NCBI RefSeq assembly: GCF_900106035.1
Contig: NZ_FNUC01000004.1
Span: forward strand, 3,135,722-3,199,721
Origin: Jiangella alba
GTDB taxonomy: Bacteria > Actinomycetota > Actinomycetes > Jiangellales > Jiangellaceae
Length of the DNA stretch: 64,000 nt
Reading direction: 5' to 3'
Part shown: piece by piece, positions 35,166-56,791 of the stretch
Layout of the letters: each line of letters opens with the position of its first letter
Numbering within the stretch: the stretch's first letter is position 1
The notes under the pieces: generated by a model
What the model was told of the DNA's origin: nothing
Database searches by the model: none
Seen by the model: the letters and a program-made list of their open reading frames with translations, nothing else
Program-made: the position numbers and the translations under genes

Positions 35166-35194
35166 TTGACACGTGTCCGCAACGTCCCTAAATT
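35166..35194 (+). promoter_or_regulatory. Near-consensus sigma-70-type promoter: TTGACA, 17-bp spacer, TAAATT
   Basis: Read directly in the sequence, about 60-100 nt upstream of the ABC operon. Confidence 0.5.
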
Positions 35195-35241
35195 CTTCGG
35201 TCATACGTAGGAGCGCATCGGCGCATTTTTTTCGGACGCTC

Positions 35242-35257
35242 GCTCATACGTATGCGC
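35242..35257 (+). promoter_or_regulatory. Candidate LacI-type operator gctCATACGTATGcgc (perfect 10-bp core palindrome with central CG), with a half-site-like copy tcatacgtagg at 35201-35211
   Basis: It overlaps the first in-frame ATG of the track ORF and lies between the promoter and the probable real start. Confidence 0.4.
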
Positions 35258-53735: not shown

Positions 53736-56700
53736 CGCCGTCGCCCACCGGCTTCGTGCCGGGCGAGGGGACGCTGCCGCCGCGCGCCACGTTCGCCTCC
53801 GACGCGCCGGCGCTGTCCCTGAACGGCGCCTGGCGGTTCCGCTGGTCGCCCACGGTGCGCGCCACCGAGGGCTTCGAGGACCCGTCCTTCGACGACTCGG
53901 CGTGGGCGTTCCTGCCGGTCCCGTCGCACTGGCAGCTGCACGGGTACGGCGCGCCCTGGTACACGAACTCGCCGTACCCGTTCCCGATCGACCCGCCGCG
54001 GGTGCCGGACGAGAACCCGAGCGGCGAGTACCGGCTGACGTTCCGGGCGCCGTCCTGGGCCGGGCAGCGGGCGGTGCTGCGCTTCGACGGCGTCGACTCG
54101 TTCTTCACGGCCTGGCTGAACGGGCAGCGGCTCGGGTACGCGACCGGCAGCCGGCTGCCGTCGGAGTTCGACGTCACCGCTCACCTGCGGCCCGGCGCGG
54201 ACAACGTCCTGGCCGTGCGGGTGCACCAGTGGTCGGCCGGCAGCTACCTGGAGGACCAGGACATGTGGTGGCTGTCCGGGATCTTCCGCGACGTGACGTT
54301 GCTGGCGCGGCCCGCGGGCTCGGTCCACGACTTCACCGTTCATGCCGACTACGACGGTGAGACCGGCACGCTGCGGGTCGACGCGGACGGCGCCGCGCGG
54401 GTGCTGGTGCCGTCGCTCGGGGTCGACGCGGCGGCCGGCGAGGACGTCGCCGTCGGCCCGGTCGAGCCGTGGAGCGCCGAGTCGCCGCGGCTCTATGACG
54501 GCGAGCTGGTCACCGCGACGGAGCGGATCGCGCTGCGGATCGGCTTCCGCCGGGTCGCCGTCGAGAACGGGCTGCTCACCGTCAACGGGCGGCGGGTGCT
54601 GTTCCGCGGCGTCAACCGGCACGAGTTCCACCCCGACCGCGGCCGTGCGCTGACCCGTCAGGACATGCTCGACGACGTGCTGCTGATGAAGCGGCACAAC
54701 GTCAACGCCGTCCGGACCAGCCACTACCCGCCGCACCCGCACTTCCTCGACCTGTGCGACGAGTACGGGCTGTACGTCGTCGACGAGTGCGACCTCGAGA
54801 CGCACGGCTTCGGCTACGAGGACTGGCGCGGCAACCCCAGCGACGACGACCGGTGGCGGCCGGCCTACCTGGACCGCATGGCGCGGATGGTCGAGCGGGA
54901 CAAGAACCACCCCAGCGTCGTCATGTGGTCGCTCGGCAACGAGGCCGGTGCGGGCGCGAACCTCGCCGCCATCTACGCGTGGACGAAGGAGCGCGACCCG
55001 TCGCGGCCGGTGCACTACGAGGGCGACCCGTCCTGCTCGGACGTGTACAGCCGCATGTACGCGTCGCAGGCCGAGGTCGACGAGATCGGCCGCGGCGAGG
55101 GGAAGCCGTTCGTGCTGTGCGAGTACGCGCACGCGATGGGCAACGGGCCGGGCGGGCTGCGCGACTACCAGGACCTGTTCGAGCGCCACGAGCGCTGCCA
55201 GGGCGGCTTCGTCTGGGAGTGGATCGACCACGGCCTGCGCGCCCGCGACGCGTCCGGCCGCTCGTACTACGCGTACGGCGGCGACTTCGGCGAGACGTTC
55301 CACGGCGGCACCTTCGTCGCCGACGGGCTGGTGTTCCCGGACCGCACGCCGTCGCCGGGCCTCGTCGAGCTGAAGAAGGTGGTCGAGCCGCTGCGCCTCG
55401 GCGGCGGCTCCCGGCTCGTCGTCGAGAACCTGCACGAGGTGCTCGACACCAGCCGGTACGCGTTCCGGTGGACCCTGACCGACGACCGCGCCGAGGTGGC
55501 GGCGGGGACGCTGGCCGTGCCCGTCGTACCGGCCGGTGGGCGGACGGAGGTGGCGCTGCCGTCGCTGCCGCCCGTGGGCCCCGGCTCGGAGGCGGGCTCG
55601 GGCTCGGGCTCGGGCTCGGGGGAGCGGTGGCTGACGGTGAGCGCGGTGCTCGCCGAGGACGCGCCGTGGGCCGCAGCCGGGCACGAGGTGGCGTGGGGGC
55701 AGCTGCCGGTGGGCGCCGCGCCGTCGCCTGTCGTTCCGGTGGCGCCGGACGCCCGGCCGGTCCGCCTCGACCCCGACACCGGCCGGCTGGCCGGCCTGGG
55801 CGGGCTGGACGTGACCGGCGCGGCGCTCGACGTGTGGCGGGCGCCGATCGACAACGACGCCGGCGGGCTGGCCACGCTGGGCGCGACGTGGCGGACGCTC
55901 GGGCTGGACCGCCTGACGCACCGGCTCGACAACGTCCGCGCGTCCGGTTCCGCGCTGGTCGTGGACACGCGGGTGGCGCCGGCCGCCCGGGCGTTCGCGC
56001 TGCGCGCCGTGTACCGGTGGACGCCGGTCGCCGACGACGCCGTGCACCTGGCGCTGACGGTGACGCCCGAGGGTTCCTGGCCCGACGACGTGTGGTTGCC
56101 GCGCCTCGGTGTCGTGCTGGAGCTGCCGGCCCGCTACGACCGGGTGACGTGGTTCGGCCGCGGCCCGGGCGAGGCGTACCCGGACTCCCGCGAAGCGGCC
56201 CGCCTCGGCCGCTTCTCCCTCGGCGTCGACGAGTTGCAGACGCCGTACGTGTTCCCCCAGGAGAACGGCCACCGCGCCGACGTCCGCTCGGCGTTCGTCC
56301 ACGCCGCCGACGGCTCCGGCCTGGCTGTCGAGGGCTCCGGCCTCGCCGCCGACGGCTCGGGCCTGGCTGTCGAGGACTCGGGCCTCGCTGTCGAGGGCGA
56401 GGCCGACCTTTCGCGTGGTAGGTGTGACCCTCCCCGTTCGGGTGGGGGCTTGACCATGAGGGCGGGCACCGACAACGTCGGCGAGGACGAACCGGACGCA
56501 CACGCCGCCGGGTCCGCCCCGGCTGTCGCGGCGATGCCCGCCCCGGCTGTCGCGGCGATGCCCGGCCCGCCGGTGTTCGGCCTGACCGTCCGGCGCTGGA
56601 CGACCGCCGACCTCGAGGCGGCCCGGCACCATGCCGAGCTGCGTCCGCGCGACCGCGTGTACGTCACCCTTGACCTCGCCCAGCACGGCCTGGGCAGCGC

Positions 56701-56791
56701 GTCGTGCGGCCCGCCGACGCTGCCGGAGTACCGGCTCGCGGTCGCGCCGGCCGAGTTCGCGGTGACGCTGCGGGCGGTCAGGTCCGGTTGA
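53732..56791 (+). CDS. Glycoside hydrolase family 2 beta-galactosidase (LacZ-like), with a ~85-aa repeat-derived insertion in the C-terminal domain
   Basis: GH2 sugar-binding, Ig-like and TIM-barrel blocks (…[11 protein letters not shown]…, …[12 protein letters not shown]…, …WSLGNEAG…, …[11 protein letters not shown]…). The ATG overlaps the preceding stop (ATGA). Confidence 0.85.
56303..56568 (+). repeat. In-frame insertion in the GH2 gene: 21-bp tandem repeats (GSGLAVE x4), a REP-like element at 56417-56475, and 24-bp tandem repeats (PAVAAM x2)
   Basis: ggtaggtgtgaccctccccgttcgggtgggggcttgaccatgagggcgggcaccgaca matches both ends of the intergenic REP-like element at 3527-3583. The reading frame is maintained. 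Confidence 0.7.

Follow-up and report, generated by a model that had tools for sequence, protein, structure and literature searches.

We found that the co-directional genes in a 64,000-nt window of the Jiangella alba genome form a real repressor-controlled cluster for the utilisation of a sugar polymer. Comparison across genomes indicates that the cluster is a mosaic of a nine-gene core and a four-gene add-on, the latter centred on the genes of an orphan protein (ORPH) and a long flavoprotein (FAD2). It suggests that FAD2 and the shorter flavoprotein FAD1 are integral catalysts of the system and not bystanders, since FAD1 accompanies the importer and LacI without exception and both types form minimal operons. 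The FAD1-type, FAD2-type and ORPH families are promising candidates for as yet undescribed steps in the breakdown of glycans, because these three uncharacterised families recur beside glycan-degrading genes in several phyla.

Organisation and control region of the cluster

The cluster runs from 35.2 to 56.8 kb and has 13 genes, all on the plus strand; GC3 frame analysis and ORF calls bore out this number as claimed by the initial annotation. It is bordered upstream by a divergent minus-strand gene (34532-35086; DUF4916/NUDIX) and downstream by a convergent one (56778-57404). From 5' to 3', the genes encode a family-5 solute-binding protein (SBP), two permeases, two ATPases, LacI, FAD1, GH3, GH5-discoidin, DUF6351, the orphan, FAD2 and GH2. 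All the family names given earlier were confirmed by Pfam search of each protein, but the order in the title of that annotation was wrong, as FAD2 comes after the orphan and not beside FAD1. The 12 junctions measure 103, 6, -1, 5, -4, -8, 11, 65, 68, 1, 13 and -4 nt. The abutting junctions described before were thus found at nine of them, including overlaps of 8 nt (LacI/FAD1) and 4 nt (FAD2/GH2), but the other three are true gaps. A double GC-rich hairpin (37187..37289, plus strand) lies 3' of the binding-protein gene and may be an attenuator or mRNA stabiliser; it folds at -66.5 kcal/mol (z = -4.6), and none of 200 shuffles folded as well. Another GC hairpin (47866..47895, plus strand; -39.2 kcal/mol, z = -2.45), without a U-tract, sits exactly where the conserved core meets the four-gene extension. 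A single operon and pathway, as proposed earlier, is too simple a description of a cluster in which a conserved core of nine genes is joined to an add-on of four.

The near-consensus promoter and the palindrome reported in front of the binding-protein gene are both present. The promoter, TTGACA-17 nt-TAAATT (35166..35194, plus strand), matches the consensus at 10 of 12 positions and is the sole match in 34900-35700, with 0.0 expected from shuffles; its -35 box, CTCTTGAC, is invariant at the orthologous loci of Microbacterium and Streptomyces. The predicted operator O1, TCATACGTAGGAGC (35201..35214, plus strand), overlaps the expected transcription start and is kept as TCATACGTAGAAGC, at an equal distance from the -35 box, in Microbacterium (L096) and Streptomyces (L098). 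The predicted operator O2, the palindrome GCTCATACGTATGCGC (35242..35257, plus strand), lies 43 bp 3' of O1; it is also conserved in L096 and is a perfect 16-bp palindrome, GCTCATACGTATGAGC, in L098. This last sequence is the two-operator consensus, which is conserved in Microbacterium and Streptomyces with a spacing of 42-43 bp, and the palindrome core TCATACGTA has no other exact copy within the 64 kb. When Jiangella, Microbacterium and Streptomyces were compared, the -35 box and both operators were invariant and the spacers had diverged, so that the former guess of an operator now appears as a phylogenetic footprint spanning three actinobacterial orders.

The start of the binding-protein gene is uncertain, with a long ORF opening at 35252. 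Position 35432 seems the more likely start, because the ATG at 35252 falls within the operator and the coding periodicity (GC3) begins only near 35460; a start at 35432 would give a leader of about 230 nt. The protein (35432..37186; SBP_bac_5, 222 bits) carries the lipobox LAAAC and is 54-64% identical to its orthologues in L098 and L096. It is followed by two ABC permeases (37290-38342 and 38349-39248; BPD_transp_1 and OppC_N) and two Dpp/Opp-type ATPases (39248-40282 and 40288-41283; ABC_tran and oligo_HPY), with 73-79% and 72-79% identity to orthologues, respectively. The LacI-family repressor (41280..42344; LacI HTH and Peripla_BP_1/3) shows 62-68% identity to its orthologues, and no NCBIfam equivalog matched it at its cutoff.

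Enzymes of the core and the add-on

The cytoplasmic GH3 protein of 794 aa (43938..46322) has GH3 N and C domains and an Fn3-like domain and is beta-glucosidase-like; its best NCBIfam match, a Cellulomonas beta-glucosidase model, scores 769 bits, below the cutoff of 1300. The GH2 protein of 1019 aa (53732..56791) is a cytoplasmic LacZ-type beta-galactosidase with all five LacZ domains, which matches beta_gal_Bga2A at 803 bits, below the cutoff of 999, so that neither glycosidase reaches an NCBIfam equivalog cutoff. Signal peptides are visible only on the GH5 and DUF6351 proteins, as previously noted, and the binding protein has its lipobox. The secreted GH5 endo-glycanase (46388..47854) ends in a discoidin domain (F5/8 type C, CBM32-like) by Pfam and carries an NEP acid/base and a TEFG nucleophile motif; its closest solved structures are cellulase-type GH5 enzymes, at only E = 1e-24. 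A 61% identical orthologue lies 3' of FAD1 in Microbacterium, and the same domain architecture is also found 3' of GH3 in Promicromonospora. The secreted DUF6351 protein of 713 aa (47923..50064; PF19878, 792 bits) is a tannase-like putative serine esterase with two GCSGG elbows. A C-terminal HC motif was looked for and not found, and the protein has no relative in the PDB and no match to a solved tannase, feruloyl esterase or MHETase.

FAD1 (529 aa, 42337..43926; PF12831, 348 bits) and FAD2 (760 aa, 51453..53735; PF12831, 331 bits over residues 27-439) are cytoplasmic flavoproteins with canonical dinucleotide-binding motifs (GGGLGG in FAD1), RESRR and IDLHP in common. The two had been described as paralogues. 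This was overstated, as they are only 24% identical and FAD2 alone has a C-terminal extension of 320 residues; judged from sequence, they are separate subfamilies and not close paralogues. In the AF2 model of FAD2 (pLDDT 77; C-terminal half >90), a FAD domain is followed by two predicted beta-sandwich domains, the last of them discoidin-like, and the substrate domain (206-307) is poorly modelled. A full-length homologue in Bacteroidota gives a weak F5_F8_type_C_2 match, and only generic FAD folds were recovered for FAD2 from the PDB.

ORPH (457 aa, 50066..51439) is predicted to be a cytoplasmic beta-propeller with a C-terminal beta-sandwich and belongs to a family without a Pfam entry; searches of Pfam, NCBIfam and PDB, profile search included, gave no match. 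The structure search with its AF2 model (pLDDT 67, pTM 0.71) gave matches at the fold level only; by Foldseek, the best PDB entries were carbohydrate-active enzymes in which a beta-propeller precedes a C-terminal beta-sandwich. The stretch of ORPH with the highest conservation (residues 253-365) is poorly modelled, and therefore the active site is not definable from the model. Its conserved arginines are R78, R110, R250, R268 and R270. For both flavoproteins and ORPH, the profile, structure and literature searches gave no family of known function; the initial annotation had regarded them as uncharacterised, and the characterised families that it had named as its own refutation were therefore not what was returned. 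No biochemical data on the function of PF12831, DUF6351 or the ORPH family were found in the searchable literature.

Distribution across genomes

The nine-gene core (35.2-47.9 kb) has an identical gene order in Promicromonospora, and most of it also occurs in Microbacterium (SBP5...LacI-FAD1-GH5) and Streptomyces (...LacI-FAD1-GH3-beta-helix, with or without FAD2) at 54-79% protein identity. FAD1 orthologues of 71-78% identity lie immediately 3' of LacI in L090, L096 and L098, and a homologue of 80% identity likewise follows LacI in L099. J. alba and J. muralis were the only genomes in which the four-gene add-on (47.9-56.8 kb) was observed.

Of 81 loci, 51 showed ORPH-FAD2-type pairing, and the gene arrangement took at least five forms, in a sample so rich in Kribbella (~35/80 loci) that the raw counts overstate the independent observations. 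The two genes are adjacent in Jiangella, divergent in Micromonospora and convergent in one planctomycete; the order ORPH-RpiR-FAD occurs in Kribbella, Microlunatus, Occultella, Pseudonocardia and Brachybacterium, and in Chondrinema (Bacteroidota) the pair is inside a SusC/SusD-sulfatase locus. The pair is an independent module, which often adjoins GH2 or GH42 beta-galactosidases or sulfatases and elsewhere has IclR or RpiR regulators of its own. The pairing is not obligatory, since most planctomycete ORPH genes are accompanied only by IclR, with the surrounding 10 kb free of flavoprotein genes, and in Kribbella one FAD2 orthologue of 79% identity lacks a neighbouring ORPH.

ORPH is 70-80% identical across Actinomycetota and Planctomycetota, and its family has 1240 representatives at 50% clustering. 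It adjoins GH2 (the window, L008 and L027), GH42 (L005) or a sulfatase (L052 and L055), and a sulfatase-ORPH fusion exists. As the more remote members are secreted by T9SS or PEP-CTERM, occur in tandem or are fused to a sulfatase, ORPH is a candidate new carbohydrate-active family. FAD2 orthologues of 48-50% identity in three marine glycan degraders adjoin a Na+/solute symporter, LacI or IclR, GH16, GH117/43-like and GH2 genes, and those of Beutenbergia and Aggregatilinea adjoin ABC sugar importers. Both flavoprotein types elsewhere are the sole enzyme in minimal operons of regulator, sugar transporter and flavoprotein, those of FAD1 type being found in Allomeiothermus, Rhizobium and Rhodococcus. 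In Streptomyces, GH42 and AXE1 adjoin the orthologous loci, which, together with GH2 or GH42 next to the orphan elsewhere, fits the former hint of an acylated glycan with beta-galactoside in it.

Proposed working and comparison with known systems

The results support the earlier idea of a LacI-controlled glycan cluster with a Dpp/Opp-type importer, secreted endo-acting and esterase-like enzymes and cytoplasmic exo-glycosidases. As a whole they are best explained, with moderate confidence, by a two-layer LacI-repressed glycan locus in which the flavoenzymes are integral catalysts. LacI would bind the conserved O1 over the transcription start and O2 43 bp downstream. Outside the cell, GH5-discoidin would cut a beta-linked polymer, probably containing Glc and Gal, and DUF6351 would strip an acyl decoration. 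The oligosaccharide would be taken up by the lipoprotein SBP and the importer, and, going by family membership, GH3 and GH2 would remove beta-Glc and beta-Gal in the cytoplasm. From gene context only, we infer the chemistry of the flavoenzymes, DUF6351 and ORPH. The flavoenzymes might, more tentatively, act as dehydrogenases on a sugar residue or a modified sugar refractory to ordinary hydrolases, probably an anionic or otherwise decorated one, and this oxidation might render the residue cleavable or de-protected. ORPH may represent a new beta-propeller enzyme, either a glycoside hydrolase or a lyase, whose substrate would be the same class of galactoside-linked residue. The two strong hairpins inside the cluster speak against this explanation, co-transcription being a prediction.

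It is possible, though we consider it rather unlikely, that the PF12831 proteins themselves cleave glycosides, by transient FAD oxidation, elimination and re-reduction in the manner of the NAD-dependent GH4/GH109 enzymes or by non-redox use of the flavin. They would then not be auxiliary oxidoreductases, and ORPH would be an independent hydrolase. The flavoproteins fill the usual glycosidase slot in minimal operons of LacI, sugar ABC transporter and one enzyme, the Microbacterium core operon has FAD1 but no cytoplasmic GH, and the C-terminus of FAD2 is modelled as a carbohydrate-binding-like discoidin domain. Apart from fumarate-reductase-type Rossmann segments, the weak sequence matches in the PDB include UDP-galactopyranose mutases, which use flavin in a non-redox way; however, this similarity is limited to the N-terminal nucleotide-binding segment. 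Most actinobacterial loci pair the flavoproteins with GH3, GH2 or GH42 enzymes, and we know of no precedent for a FAD-dependent glycosidase. Na+/solute symporters usually carry monosaccharide-sized solutes, and their position beside the marine FAD2 orthologues is more in keeping with a modified monosaccharide than with a glycoside. An alternative of similar, rather low probability is that the flavoproteins de-protect or oxidise a released modified monosaccharide (O-methyl, pyruvyl-ketal, anhydro or uronic) for central metabolism, with ORPH removing or exposing the residue. These symporters occur in agar- or carrageenan-type loci with GH16, GH117/43-like, GH127-like, sulfatase and GH2 genes; ORPH and FAD2 are found together with IclR and RpiR regulators, which often respond to sugars that are acidic or phosphorylated; and the arginine-rich conserved motifs (RESRR in both flavoproteins and the ORPH arginines) may point to an anionic ligand. 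A sub-operon of transporter, FAD-dependent oxidoreductase and regulator in the xanthan loci of Microbacterium and Paenarthrobacter agrees with it, but this oxidoreductase is compared by annotation label only and not by family. On the other hand, the core has a Dpp importer of the oligosaccharide or peptide type and not a monosaccharide carrier, the removal of a ketal or ether has no obvious need of a flavin, and soil actinobacteria are unlikely to encounter red-algal sugars.

A role of the importer in peptide or glycopeptide uptake, with the flavoproteins as oxidases of the amine or Amadori type and a secondary association with glycosidases, is very improbable. Family-5 SBPs and oligo_HPY ATPases are classical peptide importers, and among NCBIfam models the binding protein best matches those of nickel, opine or peptide binders, with every score well short of the cutoff; however, family-5 SBP systems are well established in oligosaccharide import, as in the cello- and manno-oligosaccharide binders of Thermotoga. 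The operon contains a LacI-type sugar repressor with conserved operators, GH5 and GH3 are kept together with the importer, no peptidase or amidase is present in any orthologous locus examined, and DAO-type amadoriase families match the N-terminal Rossmann segment only. Least of all do we expect that the flavoproteins and ORPH lie among the glycosidases incidentally and belong to an unrelated metabolism. PF12831 is a very large family (>8000 matches per query), and some FAD1- or FAD2-type genes are in non-glycan settings, such as that of Rhodococcus with MFS, YciI and ADH. This view is already disfavoured by a gene order that is kept in three orders, with stop codons overlapping the next start, and by a pairing that recurs in several phyla in varied arrangements.

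The two-layer glycan locus can be compared with the glycan-utilisation loci of Gram-positive bacteria, which combine a LacI repressor, an ABC importer, a secreted endo-glycanase and cytoplasmic exo-glycosidases; the cello-oligosaccharide system CebR/CebEFG/BglC of Streptomyces is an example. Shared with such loci are LacI with CG-centred palindromic operators, a lipoprotein SBP with an ABC importer, secreted GH5 and cytoplasmic GH3/GH2. In contrast, the Jiangella importer is of the Dpp/Opp type (family-5 SBP, two ATPases) and not CUT1, the invariant cytoplasmic enzyme beside the repressor is a PF12831 flavoprotein and not a glycosidase, and the locus holds three uncharacterised families. GH4 and GH109 are NAD-dependent redox glycosidases, and by analogy the flavoproteins may likewise be Rossmann-fold cofactor enzymes that take the place of a glycosidase in operons for sugar uptake. 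This analogy is purely functional, as the cofactor motif and family are FAD and PF12831 and there is no sequence relationship.

PL22 oligogalacturonide lyase is a cytoplasmic beta-propeller enzyme, and the modelled propeller with C-terminal beta-sandwich of ORPH resembles GH43 arabinofuranosidases and exo-beta-1,3-galactanase, GH183 endo-D-arabinanase and sialidases. As in the propeller CAZymes, the ORPH family has members in SusC/SusD loci, secreted multidomain forms and IclR-regulated cytoplasmic forms, but the likeness is at the fold level, without sequence similarity even in profile-to-PDB comparison. DUF6351 is labelled tannase-like by Pfam and shares secretion and GCSGG nucleophile-elbow motifs with the tannase/feruloyl-esterase family, but neither the C-terminal His-Cys of the CS-D-HC signature nor a solved-structure match was found for it.

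Xanthan-utilisation loci of actinobacteria contain GH3, an esterase, ABC importers and LacI-type regulators, and a protein labelled only as 'FAD-dependent oxidoreductase' in a transporter-regulator sub-operon, which the Microbacterium study regarded as an untested auxiliary function for unusual xanthan-derived sugars (bioRxiv 10.64898/2026.04.20.719765; PMC12772297). The Jiangella cluster has GH3, an esterase-like protein, an ABC importer, a LacI-type regulator and putative FAD oxidoreductases, but no PL8 lyase, GH9, GH38 or GH88.

Cleavage by oxidation and elimination has been described for the GMC-type FAD glycoside 3-oxidases (PMC10646112), the O-glycoside beta-eliminase and C-glycoside lyases (PMC10628242) and the levoglucosan LgdA-B-C pathway (PMC7676230). 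Unlike these systems, the Jiangella flavoproteins belong to PF12831, with a glutathione-reductase-type two-domain fold, no GMC domain being detected by Pfam in FAD1 or FAD2; ORPH, their presumed partner, is predicted to be a beta-propeller rather than a TIM barrel, and the cluster in the window has no GFO/IDH/MocA gene and no TIM-barrel lyase. Like them, it encodes putative cytoplasmic sugar oxidoreductases beside sugar transporters and LacI-type regulators. A GFO/IDH/MocA and xylose-isomerase-like TIM set is typical of such cleavage (PMC10628242, PMC7676230), and these genes flank some Planctomycetota ORPH genes and the Microbacterium core, where two GFO/IDH/MocA genes and the TIM barrel lie upstream. 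By analogy, a flavin or NAD enzyme would yield a keto-sugar and a second enzyme would cleave it.

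Gene content and mosaic organization of the cluster

The cluster consists of 13 genes, all on the plus strand, which were called from third-codon-position G+C and in-frame start searches in a window of Jiangella alba DNA with a G+C content of ~73%. Pfam and NCBIfam assigned the products, in gene order, to an SBP_bac_5 lipoprotein (the family-5 solute-binding protein, SBP), two permeases, two ABC ATPases with an oligo_HPY tail, LacI, FAD1, GH3, GH5, DUF6351, ORPH, FAD2 and GH2. FAD1 (529 aa) and FAD2 (760 aa, with a 320-residue C-terminal extension) are the two PF12831 flavoproteins, and ORPH is a 457-aa protein without an assigned family, predicted to be made up of a beta-propeller and a beta-sandwich. 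The gene inventory of the initial annotation, which had listed the two flavoproteins together ahead of GH3, held in these scans, but its order did not: FAD2 follows ORPH, and the FAD2 stop overlaps the GH2 start. The intergenic distances, in cluster order, are 103, 6, -1, 5, -4, -8, 11, 65, 68, 1, 13 and -4 nt. Upstream, the cluster is bounded by a divergent DUF4916/NUDIX gene (34532-35086, minus strand), with a LepA gene farther out. At the other end, two overlapping minus-strand genes of 208 and 247 aa (56778-58113, the first at 56778-57404) converge on the end of GH2; neither showed a Pfam family despite strong coding GC3, and genes for a GT4 glycosyltransferase and an AMP-binding enzyme come after them. 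Elsewhere in the window, the ORF at 14065-15588 has an unusually high first-position G+C (0.92) and a third-position G+C (0.87) below that of its neighbours, and may encode a low-complexity protein or be a mis-called frame.

The importer comprises the SBP, which carries a lipobox, the two permeases and the two ATPases, and the LacI protein contains the LacI (HTH), Peripla_BP_1 and Peripla_BP_3 domains. GH5 is a secreted protein with a signal peptide, both catalytic Glu motifs and an F5/8 type C (discoidin, CBM32-like) domain. Its nearest solved structures are cellulases (E = 1e-24), a distance that does not fix the GH5 subfamily and hence the polymer. The DUF6351 protein, labelled 'tannase-like' in Pfam, is also secreted; it has GCSGG, a candidate Ser nucleophile elbow, at residues 245 and 314, and with respect to the Cys-Ser...His-Cys signature of tannases and feruloyl esterases, its sole HC dipeptide lies in the N-terminal part (residue 152). 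No relative came up when the PDB was searched with the DUF6351 sequence and profile, and no alignment to a characterised tannase or feruloyl esterase was obtained. GH3 and GH2 have no signal peptide. GH2 shows the five-domain LacZ architecture, including Bgal_small_N, and its specificity was left unassigned because its NCBIfam equivalog score of 803 falls under the cutoff of 999. In another J. alba assembly (GCA_001708125.1; locus L001, 4689-4712), the GH3 region corresponding to 44723-44777 is 31 nt shorter and the gene caller split GH3 into two. The copy in the window is intact with a uniform GC3 phase, and a truncation or split was rejected for it, since the 31-nt difference belongs to the other assembly.

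The gene neighbourhoods of FAD1 homologues indicated that the cluster is a mosaic of a conserved core and a four-gene extension. Promicromonospora iranensis has SBP5, two permeases, two ATPases, LacI, FAD1, GH3 and GH5-discoidin, the first nine genes of the window cluster in identical order. Microbacterium sp. Clip185 keeps the order through FAD1 and continues directly with GH5-discoidin, and directly upstream of its core, on the same strand, lie two GFO/IDH/MocA genes and a xylose-isomerase-like TIM-barrel gene (L096, 1-2998), a set typical of oxidation-elimination sugar pathways. Streptomyces loci have the importer, LacI, FAD1 and GH3, followed by a 563-aa beta-helix protein where GH5 would be, with GH42 divergent and an AXE1 esterase close by; in one strain, FAD2 (78% identical) is added at the end. 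Compared with the window proteins, the SBPs are 54-64% identical, the permeases 73-79%, the ATPases 72-79%, the LacI proteins 62-68%, the FAD1 proteins 71-78% and GH5 61%. J. alba and J. muralis alone have the extension (DUF6351, ORPH, FAD2 and GH2) joined to the core.

Promoter, putative operators and transcript structure

The sequence TTGACA-17-TAAATT at 35166-35194 is the sole sigma-70-like match in the upstream region, where 0.0 are expected by chance. It is followed on the plus strand by two related putative LacI operators, O1 (TCATACGTAGGAGC, 35201-35214) and O2 (GCTCATACGTATGCGC, 35242-35257), which share the core CATACGTATG; the 9-mer operator core TCATACGTA has no other exact copy in the 64 kb. 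O1 lies over the expected transcription start and O2 four helical turns downstream. The -35 box CTCTTGAC is retained 5' of the orthologous SBP gene in Microbacterium sp. Clip185 and a Streptomyces species. In the same loci, O1 is retained as TCATACGTAGAAGC with O2 following 42-43 bp on, and the Streptomyces O2 is a perfect palindrome, GCTCATACGTATGAGC. The operator pair is thus common to three genera, including Jiangella. The spacers between the -35 box, O1 and O2 have diverged in these loci, and therefore the retained elements form a phylogenetic footprint of a promoter with two predicted LacI operators.

The long SBP ORF opens at an ATG at 35252, inside O2, and coding periodicity appears only near 35460; the stretch 35252-35431 translates as an Arg/Ala/Gly-rich sequence without such periodicity. 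For these reasons, the SBP probably starts at 35432, which would leave a possible leader of ~230 nt. The 103-nt gap 3' of the SBP gene holds a very stable double hairpin (37187-37289; -66.5 kcal/mol, z = -4.6), a kind of structure that could make the SBP transcript more abundant than that of the permeases and ATPases. After GH5, exactly at the seam of core and extension, lies a 13-bp GC hairpin without a U-tract (47866-47895; -39 kcal/mol, z = -2.45), which may be a former operon end. No further promoter-like sites were found inside the cluster, and it is plausible that the whole cluster forms one transcript with internal attenuation.

The flavoproteins and the orphan, putative propeller family

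Both flavoproteins give full-length PF12831 matches, with 348 bits for FAD1 and 331 bits for FAD2 against a Pfam gathering cutoff of 27. They have the N-terminal GxGxxG dinucleotide-binding motif and the acidic residue at the end of beta-2 (VVGGGLGG...VVLTE in FAD1, VGGGLAG...VLVQD in FAD2), and the RESRR and IDLHP family motifs are present in both, at an overall identity of only 24%. Sequence and profile searches of the PDB found no solved relative of either protein past the N-terminal Rossmann segment. The FAD2 model (pLDDT 77) resembles only generic two-domain flavoenzymes, with fumarate reductase, geranylgeranyl reductase and halogenases as Foldseek matches; a likeness to the Akkermansia glycosidase entry 8ayr was discounted at a TM of 0.13. 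The FAD2 model further contains two beta-sandwich domains predicted with confidence, of which the C-terminal one is discoidin-like.

FAD1-type genes (51-61% identical) form minimal operons, consisting of a sugar ABC transporter, the flavoprotein and LacI in Allomeiothermus and Rhizobium, and of IclR, an MFS transporter and the flavoprotein in Rhodococcus. In these operons, the flavoprotein occupies the place usually held by a glycosidase. FAD2 orthologues adjoin sugar ABC importers in Beutenbergia and Aggregatilinea (63-66% identical), and a Na+/solute symporter with LacI or IclR in Catenovulum, Persicobacter and Chondrinema (48-50% identical), where GH16, GH117/43-like, GH127-like, sulfatase and GH2 genes are near. 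In the GH16 proteins beside these marine orthologues, the GH16 fold is interrupted by a discoidin (F5/8 type C) domain (L087, 16043-17287; L088, 17400-18623), and several neighbours contain a Golvesin_C domain. The marine contexts suggest agar or carrageenan as the substrate, a reading that was not extended to the locus of the soil actinobacteria.

The PF12831 family gave more than 8000 matches per query, and full-text literature searches found no functional study of PF12831/FAD_oxidored, DUF6351 or the operator sequence. Genes annotated as 'xanthan lyase' in some genomes may encode PF12831 proteins. This lead gave only two recent papers on actinobacterial xanthan loci. They report an 'FAD-dependent oxidoreductase' in a transporter-regulator sub-operon (bioRxiv 10.64898/2026.04.20.719765; PMC12772297), and in the Microbacterium xanthan-locus study it is one of the auxiliary functions left untested.

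Searches of Pfam, NCBIfam and the PDB found no relative of ORPH. Even a profile that included sequences as distant as 34% identity gave 0 matches in the PDB at E <= 10. The structural model of ORPH is poor over residues 253-365. No sequence or profile similarity was detected to the known beta-propeller families GH43, GH32, GH33, GH117, GH145, PL22, PL24/25 and PL42. The family has ~1240 cluster representatives at 50% identity, without a Pfam entry, and 338 confirmed genome loci; identity between Actinomycetota and Planctomycetota copies is 70-80%. Its distant relatives (35-45% identical, among them P0244, P0249, P0245 and P0259) reach 800-1500 residues, in many cases with two domain copies, and there are fusions to a sulfatase, a T9SS tail, a PEP-CTERM anchor or a CBM35-like module. 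In the Bacteroidota Chondrinema and Spirosoma, the ORPH-domain genes directly follow SusC/SusD pairs (L085, 11881-14388; L086, 11908-14388). Fusions, tandem forms and SusC/SusD placement of this kind are typical of a catalytic carbohydrate-active domain, and we infer that ORPH may represent a new glycoside hydrolase or lyase family.

The ORPH neighbours were analysed by tblastn and all-against-all clustering on 80 loci, with Pfam run on representatives. In 51 of 81 loci, ORPH has a long PF12831 protein encoded no more than a few kb away; as Kribbella supplies ~35 of the ORPH loci, counts at the genus level are the fair measure. The PF12831 gene is directly downstream of ORPH in four Jiangella loci, and the order SBP1, permease, permease, ORPH, RpiR, flavoprotein is found in Kribbella, Microlunatus, Occultella, Pseudonocardia, Auraticoccus and Brachybacterium. 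The two genes are divergent with an IclR gene between them in Micromonospora and convergent in one planctomycete, and in Chondrinema, ORPH shares one SusC/SusD-sulfatase locus with a 770-aa flavoprotein that can be aligned with FAD2 from end to end (29% identity). Most planctomycete copies of ORPH have just an IclR gene upstream. Given these varied arrangements and the planctomycete copies, the pairing, though frequent and either formed or retained in several gene layouts, is not obligatory.

Other genes also recur next to ORPH. A LacZ-type GH2 adjoins it in the window, beside the second copy of J. muralis and in Rhodoglobus, and GH42 does so in Occultella, where a 1530-aa Golvesin_C protein is also found beside ORPH (L005). 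A sulfatase is immediately 5' of ORPH in two Phycisphaeraceae, GFO/IDH/MocA and xylose-isomerase-like TIM-barrel genes are near it in Tepidisphaerales, and J. endophytica alone has a GH38 near the ORPH-FAD2 pair. In the second J. muralis locus (L008) and a Rhodoglobus MAG (L027), a second copy of ORPH (78% identical) is accompanied by an ABC importer of the CUT1 type and by a GH2 53-54% identical to that of the window, without any flavoprotein. These two loci form a compact 'importer + ORPH + beta-galactosidase' unit.

Proposed pathway and comparison with known systems

Taken together, the data suggest that LacI would repress the cluster via O1 and O2. Outside the cell, GH5-discoidin would fragment, and the esterase-like DUF6351 protein de-acylate, a beta-linked glycan containing Glc and Gal. 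The Dpp/Opp-type system would take up the oligosaccharides, from which GH3 and GH2 would trim beta-Glc and beta-Gal. A residue beyond the reach of the hydrolases would be oxidised by the flavoproteins, and ORPH would be a new propeller glycosidase or lyase acting on the same class of residue. In this scheme, the gene anatomy, the family assignments, the conservation of the core and of the putative operators, and the associations across phyla are observations, whereas the chemistry of FAD1, FAD2, ORPH and DUF6351, the substrate and co-transcription are inferences. The embedded LacI repressor and the conserved GH5/GH3 synteny speak against an importer that serves peptides and against an incidental clustering of the genes; both explanations are disfavoured.

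Within the proposed glycan pathway, the flavoprotein may itself cleave the glycoside or it may de-protect a modified monosaccharide, and these two main rivals diverge only over the role of the flavin. An anionic sugar gains slight support from the conserved arginines and from the IclR/RpiR regulators. A far broader reading, which we regard as possible and rather unlikely, is that PF12831 proteins of the FAD1 and FAD2 types form a large unrecognised class of FAD-dependent carbohydrate-active enzymes that cleave or de-protect glycosides by flavin-mediated oxidation, a flavin counterpart of the NAD-dependent GH4/GH109 enzymes or of the GMC glycoside 3-oxidases, and that ORPH founds a new glycoside hydrolase or lyase family, their partner on glycans that bear galactosides or sulfate, in habitats ranging from soil to the sea.

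Glycan-utilisation loci are the chief source of new carbohydrate-active enzyme families. Here, three families without assigned function, two of them very large, are linked to glycan catabolism through conserved synteny in several phyla. The system has its own importer, a defined repressor with two conserved putative operators, and a secreted GH5 that is likewise conserved, and it is carried by cultured Jiangella, Promicromonospora, Microbacterium and Streptomyces; it is therefore directly testable, and three large function-less families become one defined, experimentally tractable system. If the flavoproteins carry out oxidation-assisted cleavage or de-protection, they would be a widespread flavin branch of the recently recognised non-hydrolytic breakdown of glycosides. 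This would also account for the unexplained 'FAD-dependent oxidoreductase' genes that recur in polysaccharide loci, those for xanthan included.

In its logic, the cluster resembles the oxidation-elimination routes that rely either on GMC glycoside 3-oxidases or on GFO/IDH/MocA dehydrogenases acting together with TIM-barrel lyases (PMC10646112, PMC10628242, PMC7676230). The Pfam domains GMC_oxred_N and GMC_oxred_C, as in the GMC glycoside 3-oxidase/dehydrogenase CarA and G3Ox, were found in no cluster protein, and the GFO_IDH_MocA dehydrogenase and xylose-isomerase-like TIM barrel that stand beside the Microbacterium core are absent from the 13 genes. Since the cluster contains no PL8, GH9, GH38 or GH88, its reading as a xanthan-utilisation locus was rejected. 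With Gram-positive LacI-regulated glycan-utilisation loci, the cluster shares the LacI regulator, putative palindromic operators, an ABC importer with a lipoprotein SBP, a secreted endo-acting CAZyme and cytoplasmic exo-glycosidases, whereas it differs from them by the invariant PF12831 flavoprotein and the new, predicted propeller family. It is a Gram-positive glycan-utilisation locus of a familiar kind, with an unusual invariant PF12831 component.
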